Shown here piece by piece: positions 1 through 35,473 of a stretch of DNA of 35,473 nucleotides. The position numbers and the translations under genes are program-made. The notes beneath the pieces were generated by a model. The model ran no database searches, was not told where the DNA came from, and worked only from the letters and a program-made list of their open reading frames with translations. Source of the DNA: a bacterium (GTDB lineage Bacteria > Bacteroidota > Bacteroidia > Bacteroidales > UBA932); assembly GCA_004561775.1 (NCBI GenBank), contig SFUD01000001.1, positions 1 through 35,473 on the forward strand. Direction: 5' to 3'. Each line of letters starts with the position of its first letter. Position 1 is the first letter of the stretch.

Positions 1-99
1 TACTTATAGTGTGCGCCCGGTCCTTGCTCTTGAATGGGATGCTTAAATCCTTAACCTTTCACCCCTGCGCCTTGAAAGCGCAGGGGATATAAAACCAAT
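1..99. repeat. Terminal direct repeat identical to 35375-35473. It is an assembly overlap of a circular molecule, not a biological LTR.
   Basis: Compared base by base: both copies read tacttatagtgtgcgcccggtcc...gcgcaggggatataaaaccaat. The repeat holds the last 46 nt (including the TAA at 44-46) of the 34020-35420 CDS plus the downstream hairpin. Confidence 0.95.
62..86 (+). promoter_or_regulatory. Hairpin downstream of the DGR variable repeat (duplicate copy of 35436-35460).
   Basis: cccctgcgc / cttgaaa / gcgcagggg: perfect 9-bp GC-rich stem and a 7-nt loop ending in GAAA. No T-run follows. Confidence 0.7.
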
Positions 100-107
100 C
101 GCATCAT

Positions 108-536
108 ATGGCAGATACAAGAGGTCTCGCAGTCAATAGAGACATATACAACTTTGAGACAATGATGTACCGGGTGTATGACAACATTCCGGCAAAGCAC
201 AAGCATACCCTGTCTGCATTGGCACTCCAATCCACCCTTGATATGAGGCATTACTCCAATCTGGGGTGCAAGATGTACAAGGCGTGCATAGCCGAAAAGG
301 CAAGGCTATTCTCGCTCTCTCTTGGGTATTGTGAGGACTTGCAGGATAGTCTCAATCACCTGTACGATATGGACCTGTTGTCCGGCAAGACCAAATGCAC
401 CCTTGATGCGGCACTTGATGGGATAAGAGGGCAACTCTCAAGATTGGTCAAATCCTTTGAGAAACAATTAAGCAGAGGGGCGGAACACCGGGAGGAAACA
501 ATCGGTGGAGACTCAATATATCAAGAGGAGGGATAA
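108..536 (+). CDS. avd: DGR accessory variability determinant (Avd)-like protein.
   Basis: 142 aa, sitting between the VR-bearing gene and TR/RT as in Bordetella phage BPP-1. The segment YRVYDNIPAKHKHTLSALALQ resembles the Avd / 23S-rRNA-IVS four-helix-bundle family motif (..IP.KH..). The C-terminus is basic. Confidence 0.7.
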   Translation: MADTRGLAVNRDIYNFETMMYRVYDNIPAKHKHTLSALALQSTLDMRHYSNLGCKMYKACIAEKARLFSLSLGYCEDLQDSLNHLYDMDLLSGKTKCTLDAALDGIRGQLSRLVKSFEKQLSRGAEHREETIGGDSIYQEEG

Positions 537-541
537 CTGCA

Positions 542-1939
542 ATGATTTGTAGTCGCATCAACATATCCCATTTACTTCCTTGTGCGGAGTATTCGGCCAA
601 CAACTCGTTCAATTACAATGGCAACAATGGCAAATTGAACAATAACAATAAGAATAATACTTATAGTGTGCGCCCGGTCCTTGAACTTGGTAGATTGCAG
701 ACCTATTTTGAGGATTGCCCATTTCCATTAAGTGAGATATATGACATATACAGGATAACGAAGAAACACAAGGCCTCAAAGCCATCGCACCTGTTGTTTC
801 AACTATACTATCCGCAGTACCTGCGGAGTCTCTGGCAGGACATAAACAACTGCCATTACAGGCCATCATCATCCATTGCCTTTATAATCACGAAACCCAA
901 GGTGAGAGAGGTGATTGCCGCAGATTTCCGGGATAGGGTTGTGCAGACTCTCCTTGTGCAGGAGATGCTGCCATCTCTGGAGGAATACGAACACCCACAC
1001 TCCTACTCTTGCCGAAAGGGCAAGGGTTGCCTTGCCGCAGTCCAACGCCTGCAGGAACTCAATGACCAATACTATGATGGTGTGGTGTGCTTTGTGGACA
1101 TTGCCAATCACTTTATGTCCATAGATACGGAACTCTGGACACCCAGAGTCCTGCAGTTCATTGATGAACACTACGACAAGGGAGAGGACCGCAAGGCTAT
1201 CCTCAAGTACCTTGCCAATACCATATACACCCATAGGCCGCAGGACAATTGTGTCCGTAAATCCCCTATGTGGATGTGGGAGATGTTGCCTCCGCAGAAA
1301 TCCCTGTTCCACTCCGAAAAGGGTGTCCCCATCGGCAATGTGACATCTCAAACCCTCTCCAACTTTGTGACCACAGGATACCTGCGGCTCATAGAGGCGG
1401 CAGGGTTTGACTTTGCGTTCTACACCGATGATACAGGGATGTTTTGCCACAGGGAGGATAAGGACCGCCTCCTGTCCTATCTGCCCATCTTTGAGGACTA
1501 CCTCAAGAGGGAATGCGGCCTCAAGATGCATCCCAATAAGAGATACATACAGGACACTCGCAAGGGTTTCAATGCCTTTGGTTTTCGTATCAAGGACCGC
1601 AACATCACTCCATCCAAGAGGCTTGTGTACAATTTCAAGAGGTTAGTGGGATACCTCCTCCTTTTGGCGGAGGAGGATGTGCGCAACCTGTACCTGTATA
1701 GAGAACAGGCGCAGGCGAGGCTCAATTCCTACCTCGGCCTGTTGAGGTGGTCGCATTCGTACAACCTCCGTAAGGCCCAGATGATACGCCTGCAGGCCTC
1801 CAAATGGGCGCAGATATTCCGTTTCCCTGTAGGATACGAAAAGGTGGAGATAAAGGCCTCCAAGAGCAAGATGGAACACTACAGGAGGCTCAACAAGGTA
1901 AGATATAGGCAGCAACTATCAATATCTAATGCAATATGA
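542..1939 (+). CDS. DGR reverse transcriptase. The start is uncertain: ATG 542 would make TR part of the ORF, and TTG 695 is the only other in-frame start before the RT domain.
   Basis: RT motifs were read in the translation: KPKVREVIAADFRDRVVQ, SYSCRKGKG, FVDIANHFMSID, PIGNVTSQTLSNF (the DGR-type [I/L]GxxxSQ signature), FYTDD (1421-1432) and GFNAFGFRI. Confidence 0.9.
   Translation: MICSRINISHLLPCAEYSANNSFNYNGNNGKLNNNNKNNTYSVRPVLELGRLQTYFEDCPFPLSEIYDIYRITKKHKASKPSHLLFQLYYPQYLRSLWQDINNCHYRPSSSIAFIITKPKVREVIAADFRDRVVQTLLVQEMLPSLEEYEHPHSYSCRKGKGCLAAVQRLQELNDQYYDGVVCFVDIANHFMSIDTELWTPRVLQFIDEHYDKGEDRKAILKYLANTIYTHRPQDNCVRKSPMWMWEMLPPQKSLFHSEKGVPIGNVTSQTLSNFVTTGYLRLIEAAGFDFAFYTDDTGMFCHREDKDRLLSYLPIFEDYLKRECGLKMHPNKRYIQDTRKGFNAFGFRIKDRNITPSKRLVYNFKRLVGYLLLLAEEDVRNLYLYREQAQARLNSYLGLLRWSHSYNLRKAQMIRLQASKWAQIFRFPVGYEKVEIKASKSKMEHYRRLNKVRYRQQLSISNAI
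579..689 (+). repeat. DGR template repeat (TR).
   Basis: 111 nt aligning without gaps to 35296-35406. There are 21 mismatches, all at TR adenines. In the VR frame it reads as AAC/AAT-rich codons (CAEYSANNSFNYNGNNGKLNNNNKNNTYSVRPVLEL). Confidence 0.93.
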
Positions 1940-2718: not shown

Positions 2719-3148
2719 GTATGCCAATTTCACCCTTGCCGAGTTCATTAAGAGCGACACCGCTGCCCAGAAAGGGATAGACAACGCCCCGGACTTTGAT
2801 GAGGTGGCCCACCTTGATGAGTTGATAGGGACTATCCTGCAACCCCTCCGGGAGGCCTGGGGCAAACCCCTCATTATCTCATCCGGCTACAGGTGTAAGG
2901 AACTTAACAAGGCCGTAGGCGGTGCGGAGACATCTGCCCACCAATACGGATATGCTGCAGATGTGCAGGTCACCCGGTCCAAGGACTTTGATGCCTTTAT
3001 AGCCTTTGCCGAGGATTGGCTCAAGACCAATGATGTACCTTTTGACCAGAGCATCCGTGAGTCCTCCAAGACTGCCTATTGGTGGCACATAGGCCTGCGG
3101 AACTCCAAGGGATTGCAGAGGAGGCAATTCAAGGCTATCAATGTATAA
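2711..3148 (+). CDS. Endolysin, peptidase M15 (zinc D-Ala-D-Ala carboxypeptidase / L-alanyl-D-glutamate peptidase type).
   Basis: Motifs SSGYRCKELNKAVGGAETSAHQYGYAADV match the H..D...H metal-site region of M15 phage lysins. Confidence 0.8.
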   Translation: MSKYANFTLAEFIKSDTAAQKGIDNAPDFDEVAHLDELIGTILQPLREAWGKPLIISSGYRCKELNKAVGGAETSAHQYGYAADVQVTRSKDFDAFIAFAEDWLKTNDVPFDQSIRESSKTAYWWHIGLRNSKGLQRRQFKAINV

Positions 3149-3819: not shown

Positions 3820-4185
3820 ATGAAAGCAACTATCATCAAGAATGACAACTTTGAGACCATCGGTTTCGTAGTAATGGCAGAAAACAACACCCTGTTCTCT
3901 TGGGGAGTAACCTTTACAGGTTGGAACTACTGCAAGACATTTGACCTCAAGGATGAGGACATTATCAAGGTTATGGACCTTATGAGAATGGAACAGGAAA
4001 TCAAGGACCTTGACCACATACCATCCGACTTTATGTTCAACTCCATCCACAAGGAACAACACGATGTCATTCGTAAAGCCGCAGAGAAAGGCAAGTGCCA
4101 AGAGGGATACAACTGCAAGGCCTTTATGGACAGGGCAAGCGAACTCAAGGCCAAGGTAGAGGAGACAATCAAATCTTTCAAATAG
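3820..4185 (+). CDS. Hypothetical protein (121 aa), accessory or moron-like.
   Basis: Has its own promoter upstream, a leader motif at 3800-3812 and a hairpin at 4193-4210 downstream. No recognisable domain. Confidence 0.6.
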   Translation: MKATIIKNDNFETIGFVVMAENNTLFSWGVTFTGWNYCKTFDLKDEDIIKVMDLMRMEQEIKDLDHIPSDFMFNSIHKEQHDVIRKAAEKGKCQEGYNCKAFMDRASELKAKVEETIKSFK

Positions 4186-4192
4186 CAATACC

Positions 4193-4210
4193 GGGGAGGG
4201 CAACCTCCCC
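4193..4210 (+). terminator. GGGGAGG / GCAA / CCTCCCC hairpin (member of a 5-copy family).
   Basis: 7-bp GC stem with a GNRA loop. No clear T-run. Confidence 0.45.
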
Positions 4211-4269
4211 ACCAAATATCTTTCAGTCAGTTATACTCAATTATTAACCCTTAATCAATCTAAATCATT

Positions 4270-4671
4270 ATGAAACAGGTAATCCTTACCAACACCAATG
4301 GTCAGTACAACGACCTCCTCACCAACAATCTCTACTTTGCTTACTGCAATGCCATCAACACCAAGGCGATTGAGGAGGCAAAACGCAATGCCAACCTTAT
4401 CATTGTATGCCCCTGTGACCGCAAGGAGAATGAGTTTCTCTATTTCTTTGACCTCCGAGACACCACTAACGAGAGTACACGGAGACAGGGAACAACCACC
4501 ACCGAGGCCCTCAAGTTTTATGAGTCGGAGGTGTGCGACCTGTCAAGCAGAATTGGCTATCTCTCCGAGGGGGCAGATATATCCGAGGCTGAATTTGACA
4601 TCCTTGATAAGGTGGGACAACACCTTGACAAGGCCGCAGATGCCCTCTATGATGTCTGGGCCAAGAGGTAA
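4270..4671 (+). CDS. Hypothetical protein (133 aa).
   Basis: Leader motif at 4247-4260 and a hairpin at 4679-4699 after the stop. No recognisable domain. Confidence 0.6.
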   Translation: MKQVILTNTNGQYNDLLTNNLYFAYCNAINTKAIEEAKRNANLIIVCPCDRKENEFLYFFDLRDTTNESTRRQGTTTTEALKFYESEVCDLSSRIGYLSEGADISEAEFDILDKVGQHLDKAADALYDVWAKR

Positions 4672-4678
4672 TCATTCC

Positions 4679-4702
4679 GGGGAGGGTATCCCCCTCCCCT
4701 TT
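4679..4702 (+). terminator. GGGGAGGG / tatcc / CCCTCCCC hairpin plus TTT.
   Basis: Perfect 8-bp stem, 8 nt after the stop codon. Confidence 0.5.
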
Positions 4703-5789: not shown

Positions 5790-5795
5790 CTAACC

Positions 5796-5816
5796 GGGGA
5801 GGATGACCTCCTCCCC
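5796..5816 (+). terminator. GGGGAGGA / tgacc / TCCTCCCC hairpin.
   Basis: 8-bp stem. No T-run. Confidence 0.4.
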
Positions 5817-29168: not shown

Positions 29169-29174
29169 TTGACT

Positions 29175-29198
29175 GGGGAGGGTAACCCCCTCCCCTTT
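29175..29198 (+). terminator. GGGGAGGG / taacc / CCCTCCCC hairpin plus TTT.
   Basis: Perfect 8-bp stem, 7 nt after the capsid stop. Confidence 0.55.
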
Positions 29199-32296: not shown

Positions 32297-34015
32297 ATGG
32301 CAGATTTCTCAACACTCAAATCGCAAGTTGCTGCGGTTGTCCGGGCCAACGGCCTGCAGGACATCAAGGGGTCAAACCTGCAAGAGCAACTCTTTAACAT
32401 CATTGACACGATGAATGCGAGCAAGGTGGATGTGGAGGCAGGAAAGGGCCTCTCAACCAATGACCTCACCACCGCCCTTGTCAATGCCATCACCTCCGCA
32501 GTTCAGCCTGCAGAACTCGCATCTGCAATTGCTGCCGCAGTTGCCTCCTATGTAGCAAAGGCGGATATTGTGGCTATCACAGGTAGCGCAACGGACAAGG
32601 TGATGAGCCAAAAGGCAGTCACCGACAATCTCGCACTCAAGGCTAACAAGGCGGATTATGTAGCCAAGACTGACATTGTGGCAACCGAGGGGTCAAGCGG
32701 CACAAAGGTGATGTCACAGGCTATTGTCACCAACCGCCTTGCCGCAAAGGCTAACGCCTCCGATGTCTATACCAAGGCAGAGGTGGACACCTCCCTTGCA
32801 GGGAAAATGGACACCAATGGCGCATACACCAAGGCCGAGACCCTGGGACTCCTCGCCTCCAAGGCCAATACGGATGATGTGTACACCAAGAATGCGGTGG
32901 ACAACCTCCTCCTGTCAAAAGCATCACAGGCAGGACTTGATGCGGAGGCCGAATTGAGGGCCAATGCGGATGCTGCCCTCAACACCGCAGTTGCTGCCAA
33001 GGCTAACTCTGCGGATGTCTATACCAAGGCACAGGCAGATGCCATAACCAATGCCCTTACCGATAACCTGTCACGCATCCTCCGAGACTTTGGTATGTAC
33101 CCCAACCCAACGGAGTATGTGCTTGTGGTAGGTGTGAGTGGCAAATACATTGACAAGGACTCCGCCCTTGAGGTGGCCAATGGCAACTACTCCATCTCGC
33201 AGCCTATCTCGCTGAAAGCAGGGGACATCTTGCTCGTGCCATCTGCCTCTGCAGTCGCAGCCGCCTGTTCGGTAGTGTCCAAGAAAGTGACCAATACCTA
33301 TGACAAGGTTATCATCTACGCATACACCTACGATGAGTTTGGCAGGATTAACACCGCCACCGCAGACTATAACCCCTCATTGGTCTACACCGCATACTAT
33401 GAGTCCGATGAGCAGACCACCCCTACCAATTGGATAAGGGGCGGAGAACACATCGCAGAACTCCCGGAGACCCACGAGGTCACCGAGTCATTCTATGAGC
33501 CTCTTGTCAAGCAGAGTGTGGCAGGTATGCCGGATACAGGATACTATGTATACCTCGCATCACAGGCAATGGATGTGGTAGTGTCTGCATACAACGCCAC
33601 CATCAACGGAGGTCACGCCATCATTGCAGGTTGGGGCATTTTTAAGAATATTGCCACCAATTTTGTGGGCATTGACAAGCAGAGGGTTATTGCCGAGGCC
33701 ATTGCTGCCCTCTTTGCGCAGGTTGAGGGTATCAACGAGAAACTCACCAACGGCCTTGACCGCCTATCCGTTAAGCACCTGCACATTGACAGGGAACTCT
33801 CTGGACTCAATATCGCAGGGACATTCTGCCTGCAGGGCGCAGGCGTTCCATCTGCATCCGTAGTACCTGTCAATTGGGACTTTGGGCGGTATGGTGATTG
33901 GAAAGGCATTCCGCAGTTCATTGGACAGGAATACTTTGACACTATTGACAAGGTATTCTACAAGGCTCACGGAGTGACTGCCGTATCCGATTGGAAACGA
34001 ATAACAAACGCATAG
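32297..34015 (+). CDS. Tail fiber protein with repeated KA(N/D)..DVYTKAE.D motifs.
   Basis: ATG 32297 lies 2 nt after the upstream TAA; the track start at 32231 overlaps the previous gene. Repeats include KANASDVYTKAEVD, KANTDDVYTKNAVD, KANSADVYTKAQAD and the duplicated KADIVAITGSATDKVMSQKAV / KTDIVATEGSSGTKVMSQAIV. Confidence 0.8.
   Translation: MADFSTLKSQVAAVVRANGLQDIKGSNLQEQLFNIIDTMNASKVDVEAGKGLSTNDLTTALVNAITSAVQPAELASAIAAAVASYVAKADIVAITGSATDKVMSQKAVTDNLALKANKADYVAKTDIVATEGSSGTKVMSQAIVTNRLAAKANASDVYTKAEVDTSLAGKMDTNGAYTKAETLGLLASKANTDDVYTKNAVDNLLLSKASQAGLDAEAELRANADAALNTAVAAKANSADVYTKAQADAITNALTDNLSRILRDFGMYPNPTEYVLVVGVSGKYIDKDSALEVANGNYSISQPISLKAGDILLVPSASAVAAACSVVSKKVTNTYDKVIIYAYTYDEFGRINTATADYNPSLVYTAYYESDEQTTPTNWIRGGEHIAELPETHEVTESFYEPLVKQSVAGMPDTGYYVYLASQAMDVVVSAYNATINGGHAIIAGWGIFKNIATNFVGIDKQRVIAEAIAALFAQVEGINEKLTNGLDRLSVKHLHIDRELSGLNIAGTFCLQGAGVPSASVVPVNWDFGRYGDWKGIPQFIGQEYFDTIDKVFYKAHGVTAVSDWKRITNA
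32558..33058 (+). repeat. Intragenic tandem fiber repeats.
   Basis: Nucleotide-level recurrences such as gatgtctataccaaggc (about 32761 and 33013) and aaggctaac. Confidence 0.6.
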
Positions 34016-34019
34016 AACT

Positions 34020-35420
34020 ATGGCAAATCTATTTTTGTACAAGAATAAGGCAGGGTACAACTCTGCAACTGACCGACCTGCGCAGCAGAGTTCGGTGTCC
34101 TATGATGGGCAGGAGACCATTGTAGATGGCAAGAATGTCATTCTGCCTTTCAAACCCGCTAACGCCCAGATGGGTGATATGGTGGTATATGATACCATTG
34201 ACAACTGCCGCAAGATACTCAAGTGGAAAACCTACCACGCAGGTACTTTTGACTCCTCAAGGTATATTATGGGTAAGGCCCTGTACTTTGGGGCGCAGAA
34301 TGGCAAGGGCATCTGGGCGGGTATTGAGAATGCAGTAAGTGCATCCAAGATGTGGGCAGAGAAATGCTATTTCCGCCTTACAGGCATCAATGTGTCTGCC
34401 GCAGGCTCATTCACTTTCAAGACCTACTACTCTTGGGCATCTCATCCAGACAATGTTGTCTCTTGGGATGCAGGCGCAACCCTCGCATCTATTGTTGCCA
34501 CCATCAACGGCCTTGGCCTGTCTGCCTCCTATTTCAAGGCTGCGGTCCTCGCGGATGGTACAGGTATCGGTATCTGGGTGAACTACCCTACTACTGATAA
34601 TGTCTCCGCAATATTCTCCATCACCGCAGGTGGGGAGGGTATCAATGTGGAGTATATGAACAAGTACAACGGACAGGATGTGGTATGGCAATATGTTACC
34701 ACCTCTACCATCATTCCGGGCAGGACTCCTGCCAAGAATGTACTGCGCAGGAATGGCCTGTCTACATATTGGGGAGGCGGCCACTTTGCCAAGTTTGTGG
34801 ACTATTATGGTACAAATGGCAAGGCGGAATACGCCCCGGAGACATCTAATGACCCTATGAACAGGGCCACATTCAACGCCCTTGCCGAGTCCTTGGTTGA
34901 GGCAGAAAAGGCCCTCTATGACAAGTACAATGGTTCATATGAGGAGTATATTGAGGGCGCAATGGTCCTCTGCGATACCGCAAGGGATATTATGGGTGTC
35001 TCATACGATGATGCCTCCTACCAGACTGCCCTACTTGGACAGGTGATGACCAAGGACTATGACAACAATGTCATCCCGGCATTCCCTGCCGCCTACTACG
35101 CCCATATCTATGGAGTCAATGCCGCAGTACCTACAGGCTTTGAGACAGGCAAGTGGGGACTCCCTACCACCTACCAGATGGTGAAACTCATTGAGTTGGT
35201 AGGCCTCAACGCCAATAACAAAACGGATTTCAACAGGGCCATTGACAAGTTCAATGCTGCAGGAAATTTCTATGGTAGCGGATACTATTTCTGGACTTGT
35301 GCGGAGTATTCGGCCGGCGGCTCGTTCAATTACGGTGGCGACTATGGCTTTTTGTACATTGACCCTAAGTATGGTACTTATAGTGTGCGCCCGGTCCTTG
35401 CTCTTGAATGGGATGCTTAA
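34020..35420 (+). CDS. DGR target protein: receptor-binding or adhesin protein with a C-terminal DUF1566/C-type-lectin-fold variable domain.
   Basis: 466 aa, immediately after the tail fiber. The C-terminus GKWGLPTTYQMVKLIEL...YYFWTCAEYSAGGSFNYGGDYGFLYIDPKYGTYSVRPVLALEW follows the DUF1566 pattern (W.LP...EL..L ... YWS....... VR.V). The VR occupies the last 125 nt. Confidence 0.85.
   Translation: MANLFLYKNKAGYNSATDRPAQQSSVSYDGQETIVDGKNVILPFKPANAQMGDMVVYDTIDNCRKILKWKTYHAGTFDSSRYIMGKALYFGAQNGKGIWAGIENAVSASKMWAEKCYFRLTGINVSAAGSFTFKTYYSWASHPDNVVSWDAGATLASIVATINGLGLSASYFKAAVLADGTGIGIWVNYPTTDNVSAIFSITAGGEGINVEYMNKYNGQDVVWQYVTTSTIIPGRTPAKNVLRRNGLSTYWGGGHFAKFVDYYGTNGKAEYAPETSNDPMNRATFNALAESLVEAEKALYDKYNGSYEEYIEGAMVLCDTARDIMGVSYDDASYQTALLGQVMTKDYDNNVIPAFPAAYYAHIYGVNAAVPTGFETGKWGLPTTYQMVKLIELVGLNANNKTDFNRAIDKFNAAGNFYGSGYYFWTCAEYSAGGSFNYGGDYGFLYIDPKYGTYSVRPVLALEWDA
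35296..35406 (+). repeat. DGR variable repeat (VR).
   Basis: Ungapped 111-nt alignment to TR 579-689 with 90 identities. All 21 differences correspond to A in TR. The invariant GC-rich 3-prime end gtgcgcccggtcc is IMH-like. Confidence 0.93.
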
Positions 35421-35473
35421 ATCCTTAACCTTTCACCCCTGCGCCTTGAAAGCGCAGGGGATATAAAACCAAT
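35375..35473. repeat. Second copy of the terminal overlap (= 1-99).
   Basis: Exact 99-nt identity with the window start. Confidence 0.95.
35436..35460 (+). promoter_or_regulatory. Hairpin 30 nt downstream of VR (DGR target-site structural element candidate).
   Basis: cccctgcgc / cttgaaa / gcgcagggg. No U-tract, and the essential lysis genes lie downstream in the same orientation. Confidence 0.6.

Follow-up and report, generated by a model that had tools for sequence, protein, structure and literature searches.

We analyzed a 35,473-nt contig (SFUD01000001.1, positions 1–35,473 of the forward strand; GenBank assembly GCA_004561775.1, assigned to the Bacteroidales lineage UBA932), referred to below as the window, with respect to a pair of 111-nt repeats that had been noticed in an earlier sequence-only reading. 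The two copies are the variable repeat (VR) and the template repeat (TR) of what is almost certainly a functional diversity-generating retroelement (DGR), which belongs to a temperate gut phage of about 35.4 kb and diversifies a tail-associated protein. The sequence-only reading had interpreted the pair as a DGR with adenine-specific mutagenesis, mostly in AAY codons (Y, pyrimidine), and this interpretation is supported by what accompanies the repeats: a reverse transcriptase (RT), a gene of the Avd family, a VR at the C-terminus of its target, an initiation of mutagenic homing (IMH) sequence and a GC-rich stem-loop.

TR occupies positions 579–689 (+ strand) and contains 37 adenines, with 12 AAY codons, one AAA codon and one AAG codon; VR occupies 35296–35406 (+). 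The pair is the strongest direct repeat within the window. Pairwise alignment reproduced the gapless alignment of the sequence-only reading at exactly these coordinates: over 111 nt the copies differ at 21 positions, and, as had been claimed, all 21 are adenines in TR, 10 of them changed to G, eight to T and three to C. The probability of such a restriction by chance is (37/111)^21 = 9.6e-11 (hypergeometric test, 5.5e-13). The translations of both repeats given in that reading match ours, but its codon tally requires correction: 13 codons differ (11 AAY, AAA and GAA) where 12 had been counted (10 AAY, AAA and GAA), and of three A-rich TR codons said to be unchanged (two AAY and the AAG) the AAG is indeed intact, but only one AAY is. 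VR ends 14 nt upstream of the stop codon of a 466-aa open reading frame (ORF) at 34020–35420 (+), the DGR target gene.

The first 99 nt of the window (1–99) are an exact copy of 35375–35473, a terminal direct repeat to which no strand applies, and the genome is therefore a circular or terminally redundant molecule of 35,374 bp. Since this repeat joins the window ends, VR is separated from the downstream TR by about 650 nt and not by 34.7 kb, and the final 32 nt of VR (duplicated at window 1–32) and the stem-loop each occur twice in the window. Around the circle, the cassette consists of the target gene with its C-terminal VR, the GC-rich stem-loop, avd, and TR within the 5′ end of the RT ORF, and it is contiguous in sibling contigs of 35.1–35.8 kb.

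The sequence-only reading predicted a multi-allelic VR, varying at positions that match TR adenines, together with a constant TR. Sixteen independent assemblies of this phage from metagenomes stood in for read mapping (mostly at about 97% identity with the window across the 6.4 kb that were aligned; L024 and L025, 78%, gapless), and they show precisely this pattern, between samples and not within one. Samples in which the phage is present include ERZ11466724, ERZ10544608, SRR17382098, SRR18693218 and SRR16894906. The 19 VR copies in the sibling genomes comprise 17 distinct alleles, and 317 of the 324 allele differences from TR are located at TR adenines. VR alleles vary at 31 of the 37 TR adenine positions, with a mean change frequency of 0.51 at A599–A663, and substitutions to G, T and C number 129, 120 and 29, respectively. 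TR, on the other hand, is the same as that of the window in 15 of 17 sibling copies, and in the first nine genomes it has one variable site in 111, whereas 85 of 1276 sites vary elsewhere in the target gene. In sibling L019, TR carries A663G and its own VR also has G at this position, which fits faithful copying of non-A bases. The fact that nearly every sibling has a different VR at about 97% genome identity argues for frequent recent homing in this lineage, and the DGR is demonstrably active at the population level. Diverged relatives show the same bias, with 17 of 17, 20 of 20, 16 of 17, 14 of 14 and 20 of 21 mismatches at TR adenines.

Individual codons differ in how they behave. The AAA codon varies freely, without a stop codon occurring in any allele. 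The AAG codon for lysine (TR 650–652, VR 35367–35369), which the sequence-only reading had singled out together with AAA as able to mutate to a stop, could in principle mutate fully, yet it is unaltered in 17 of 17 distinct alleles (P ~3e-12 if its adenines changed as often as the others), and members of the target family retain Lys or Arg at this site; together, these two observations imply strong purifying selection on the AAG codon after homing. A615, A627 and A665 are essentially fixed as well. The adenines seen to vary provide a repertoire of ~4.6e18 DNA variants and ~6.6e17 protein variants.

Adenine mutagenesis, to which the sequence-only reading attributed all 21 differences, accounts for 19 of them; the remaining two, A684 and A685, are CT in every VR allele (GAA to GCT in 19 of 19 VR copies). 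These positions are located just 3′ of an adenine-free, GC-rich 18-mer (TR 666–683), and at no adenine from A665 onward do the VR alleles vary. The corresponding IMH-like 3′ end of VR (35383–35406, +) is made up of the adenine-free GC-rich segment GTGTGCGCCCGGTCCTTG (35383–35400), CT (35401–35402; AA in TR) and CTTG, while TR ends in the non-identical counterpart, IMH* (…CCTTGAACTTG). GAA in TR versus GCT in VR is repeated in four other lineages (L115, L116/L001, L118 and L119; targets 51–71% identical), and the resulting “LAL” is nearly invariant across 34 homologous target proteins. Because CT is identical in all VR alleles and in four diverged lineages, the window differences divide into 19 mutagenic ones and a two-nucleotide fixed mark; judged by this sequence comparison, the AA/CT difference is an IMH/IMH* mark and not a product of random mutagenesis. 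The distinction between IMH in VR and IMH* in TR marks the 3′ limit of information transfer (PMC5758913). One 71% target homologue, P0009, ends in ...VRPVLELEWDA, with a TR-type Glu replacing the near-invariant Ala, and looks like a case of IMH to IMH* conversion.

The stem-loop, CCCCTGCGC-CTTGAAA-GCGCAGGGG, spans 25 nt at 35436–35460 (+), 29 nt past the end of VR, with its second copy at window 62–86. A 9-bp GC-rich stem is found 24–29 nt after VR in every DGR-bearing lineage, and no equivalent stem-loop is found downstream of TR. In a hand alignment of six lineages, eight of the nine stem pairs are changed on both sides and none is broken, each sequence folding into the hairpin alone. The target homologue of L120 (L120:3001-4425), which is 43% identical and without DGR parts, has no stem-loop. 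An intrinsic terminator was considered and rejected, since the stem-loop has no T-run and was not flagged as one. The stem-loop fits the inverted repeat that promotes homing in the DGRs of BPP-1 and Legionella (PMC5758913), and it may serve the same function here; GC-rich inverted repeats downstream of VR are present in only about one-third of DGRs (PMC5758913).

The RT ORF (542–1939, +; 465 aa) includes TR in frame as residues 13–49, and matches Pfam RVT_1 (E = 3.7e-12) and PHROG 1423, reverse transcriptase (E = 1.5e-50). It contains the motifs IGNVTSQ (aa 264–270, nt 1331–1351) and YTDD (aa 294–297, nt 1421–1432), the former conforming to [I/L/V]GxxxSQ, a hallmark of DGR RTs. Among PDB entries it is matched best by 8ub7 (E = 3.7e-13), a reverse transcriptase of 328 aa that, judging from this length, is probably the Bordetella bRT. 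As judged by its sequence, the RT is intact and of the DGR type.

Upstream of the RT, the avd-like accessory gene at 108–536 (+) encodes 142 aa. Among its homologues (60–92% identical), seven of seven match Pfam bAvd (best E = 2.7e-4) and five of seven match PF05635 (best E = 7e-7), and such profile matches support assignment of the product to the Avd (accessory variability determinant) family of four-helix bundles at the family level. A search of the PDB with the Avd alignment profile returned spurious helical proteins only. In an index of public assemblies, a protein identical to the window Avd occurs in 584 blocks. In 389 of these, the longest avd-bearing contig is shorter than 2 kb, which fits assembly breaks at the VR/TR repeats or a heterogeneous VR; the short contigs may hint at within-sample VR diversity.

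The target gene is the last gene of the structural module, following a 594-aa tail-fiber-like gene. Its product from the window has no Pfam match and falls below the threshold for Pfam Lcl_C, a family matched by five of 34 target family members. The AlphaFold model of the target (pLDDT 91.9) was searched with Foldseek at full length, and its C-terminal domain matched the C-terminal domain of Legionella Lcl (8q4e; probability 0.97, TMt 0.44); other matches of the C-terminus were a Bacteroides fimbrial protein and DUF1566 phage proteins (BFVD). A profile of the last 132 aa likewise matched 8q4e (E = 1.5e-5). The C-terminal domain is thus supported, at the family level, as an Lcl_C/DUF1566-type (CLec2, C-type-lectin-like) domain. 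Wu et al. (PMC5758913) describe CLec2/DUF1566 as one class among DGR targets. The size of the 90%-identity cluster (1789 members) was discarded as a measure of VR diversity, since RT and target fall in one cluster. The RT (465 aa) and the target (466 aa) share this cluster despite having in common only the ~37 aa encoded by TR/VR, and their co-clustering is possibly an artefact seeded by the shared repeat.

Several observations weigh against the assignment of a functional, target-diversifying DGR. The window Avd by itself is below thresholds (NCBIfam Avd, E = 0.1; Pfam bAvd, E = 0.048). Full-length structural matches of the target are weak (TM 0.13–0.44), and the isolated C-terminal domain is modelled too poorly for a fold search (pLDDT 61). 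Seven of the 324 allele differences are at non-A positions, which is compatible with, and not proof of, background polymorphism. The phage also has other GC-rich intergenic hairpins, different in sequence, and the stem-loop might act in transcription or RNA processing of the late operon instead of in homing. Finally, variation between samples reflects activity in the past and at the level of the population, and does not show that this particular genome is active.

The last of these points leads to the rival that survives best, namely that the element is a relic which once diversified VR and is now inactive in this genome, the window VR being a frozen allele. Ongoing activity cannot be shown from a single genome, and signs of decay exist among relatives: in L117 the target, the stem-loop and an Avd-like gene persist without TR or RT, the TR of L111 has lost eight adenines, and P0009 has a TR-like LEL at its IMH. 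The window itself, however, has an intact RT ORF with catalytic motifs, an IMH that retains CT, and the canonical A-rich TR common to 15 of 17 siblings, and a different VR is found in nearly every sibling despite ~97% genome identity. We therefore consider a relic very unlikely.

Ordinary mutation, gene conversion or A-specific deamination acting on paralogous repeats is in turn effectively refuted as a source of the differences. Beyond the existence of a repeat, nothing speaks for such an origin, and it would have to place 21 of 21 differences at adenines of one copy only (P ~1e-10) and hold the A-rich copy constant while the other varies between samples. An RT and an Avd gene also lie between the two copies. 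Deamination gives A to G only and fails given the G/T/C spectrum described above. A mis-joined or collapsed repeat mimicking a VR/TR pair is likewise extremely unlikely: although 111-nt repeats can confuse short-read assemblers, and the 389 of 584 avd blocks below 2 kb suggest breaks at repeats, the same contiguous layout was recovered from 16 or more independent assemblies, which came from different projects and were built with different assemblers, and from diverged relatives as well.

For the functional DGR, a mechanism of mutagenic retrohoming can be outlined by analogy with Bordetella phage BPP-1, from which the RNA intermediate, the priming and the role of Avd are carried over. The avd-TR-RT transcript would be bound by an RT-Avd complex, and TR RNA would be reverse-transcribed with random nucleotides placed opposite adenines. 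The cDNA would then replace VR, entering at the GC-rich 3′ IMH and being resolved within the 20-nt 5′ homology. The predicted outcome is about 17 rewritten codons (12 AAY, AAA, ACT, TAT and others) and up to ~7e17 protein variants. The rewritten codons would be displayed on the Lcl_C/DUF1566-type domain at the ligand-binding tip of the tail-associated protein, presumably altering receptor specificity. The presumed purpose is the tracking of variable host surface receptors in the gut, which is what Roux et al. (PMC8144416) propose for DGRs encoded by viruses.

The position of TR inside the RT ORF suggests a further, more speculative possibility. The RT ORF starts 5 nt past the avd stop codon, and TR is read through in the VR frame. 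In five lineages, an in-frame ATG (GTG in one lineage) is found right after the avd stop, 37–40 nt before TR. The SSR..ISH codons between this start and TR show synonymous substitutions across the five lineages, and the frame is open into the RT domain. Directly 5′ of TR and within the annotated RT ORF, a segment at 551–578 (+; AGTCGCATCA.. ATATCCCA...) is near-identical in nucleotides across five lineages whose target proteins are 51–100% identical. An alternative TTG start at 695 is kept between the window and L001/L002. TR and RT share a frame in 39 of 70 related but more distant DGRs, of which 24 are also open through TR; as only 24 of 70 have TR both in frame and open, an in-frame TR is a trait of phage sub-lineages with a short TR-RT gap and not of the wider group. 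The in-frame start and the synonymous changes upstream of TR hint at real translation of the TR-encoded part, but an RNA-level role for the preceding segment is equally possible because this segment is highly conserved in nucleotides. That TR is translated as an Asn-rich N-terminal extension of the RT, so that one RNA segment would act both as mutagenesis template and as coding sequence, is therefore a tentative proposal, which we regard as rather improbable. If it were true, translation of the RT would be coupled to use of the template, e.g. if nascent RT were loaded preferentially in cis onto the TR RNA that encodes it, or if ribosome traffic gated reverse transcription. TRs overlapping an annotated RT ORF have already been catalogued as DiGReF group 3 (PMC3521204); that class is defined from annotation alone, whereas here five lineages retain the in-frame start directly behind the avd stop.

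Compared with the mtd-avd-TR-brt cassette of BPP-1, whose features we take as summarized in PMC5758913, the window element has the same order (target with C-terminal VR, avd, TR, RT) and the same adenine-specific mutagenesis. In both, a GC-rich IMH forms the 3′ boundary and its counterpart in TR, IMH*, differs from it; a GC-rich inverted repeat follows VR but not TR; and the target is a phage tail-associated protein of the receptor-binding type. The differences are that: (i) the window RT is less than 30% identical; (ii) the target has an Lcl_C/DUF1566-type (CLec2) domain, whereas BPP-1 has Mtd (CLec1); (iii) the stem-loop in the window lineage lies 24–29 nt past the end of VR/TR homology; and (iv) there is no non-coding TR-RT spacer, TR being inside the annotated RT ORF, so that a spacer-like RNA would overlap coding sequence. 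The DGR of Legionella pneumophila (CLec2/DUF1566, category “d” of Wu et al. 2018, PMC5758913) also has its VR in a DUF1566/Lcl_C-like domain, and the scaffold motifs W.LP…, …W…AE.SA… and K….VRPV are shared, in addition to the profile match to 8q4e. In contrast to the Legionella DGR, which is chromosomal or located on an island, the window element is phage-borne, and its target is not a lipoprotein but a virion protein whose N-terminal ~330 aa are unrelated. The DGRs of cultured and uncultured Bacteroides phages (Hankyphage, PMC6199706; B. uniformis F1/F2/F4, PMC8143477) resemble that of the window in ecosystem, probable host group, a temperate or siphovirus-like carrier of 30–43 kb, and a DGR on a tail-module protein. 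The window RT is, however, only 31–32% identical to those of F2, F1 and F4, and on RT sequence the window DGR is placed in a lineage separate from the known Bacteroides phage DGRs.

Variants of the cassette are found among siblings and relatives. Some siblings carry a second DGR target (L113:4322-4813, L110:6570-7061 and L111:6537-7028), a 163-aa protein with its own diversified VR and the C-terminus ...SVRPVLALAKS. This second-target cassette replaces window positions ~3825–4690, where the window has an unrelated 133-aa ORF (4270–4671) without a VR. In L111 (SRR15410220), eight adenines of TR (2962–3072) are replaced, with AA kept at the IMH* position; its VR1 (2305) corresponds to the altered TR plus changes at the remaining adenines, while its VR2 (6907) is incompatible with the altered TR. 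Unless this is an assembly artefact, the TR of L111 looks like one that was once overwritten by mutagenized cDNA. In L117 (L117:3001-5028), next to the target homologue and the stem-loop, the Avd-like gene encodes 188 aa, and neither a TR/VR pair nor an RT is present.

The genes elsewhere in the window identify the carrier as a temperate phage of ~35.4 kb. They include an integrase with Bacteroidota-type arm and SAM-like domains, a large terminase, a portal protein, an M15 endolysin, a head protease or capsid-like protein, a tape-measure-like protein and the tail-fiber-like protein encoded directly before the target. The terminase shares 45% identity with those of cultured Bacteroides phages of 34–38 kb, and the host is probably a human-gut Bacteroides or another member of the Bacteroidales. 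A megablast search with 20 kb of the window gave no nucleotide-level match among GenBank phages, and no RT more than 36% identical was found in GenBank phages or GTDB species genomes. Host flanks were absent from the contigs retrieved by integrase and Avd look-ups (all ≤50 kb), a tRNA search found no tRNA genes, and no Rfam family matched.

A family of hairpins of the form GGGGAGG-loop-CCTCCCC occurs at gene ends in the window (4188–4213, 4674–4699, 5791–5816 and 29170–29195; also 3800, 5372 and 5834), often with a ACCCTTAATTC motif behind them that immediately precedes the next start codon; these hairpins are probably terminator or promoter-type signals of the phage. A CCTTAAC motif also precedes the VR-proximal stem-loop. 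Within the tail-fiber-like gene, at 32739–33035, there are three imperfect 45-nt direct repeats with a spacing of 114–138 nt, and similar repeats are present in L115 and L119.

Gut-phage DGRs are already well documented, and the present element, a new lineage of a well-known kind of DGR, is a clean but ordinary example that leaves the overall picture unchanged; its value is practical. For automated A-bias counts in general it carries a caveat, since two of the 21 differences that look mutagenic make up a fixed recognition mark. The element is compact, complete and very widespread, and its anatomy is unusually clean, with a single 111-nt VR/TR pair, a sharp IMH/IMH* mark, a covarying stem-loop, one- and two-target variants, and decay intermediates. 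It thereby offers a natural data set for DGR boundaries, for selection on scaffold residues such as the unchanged AAG lysine, and for the host-range dynamics of a Bacteroides-type phage.

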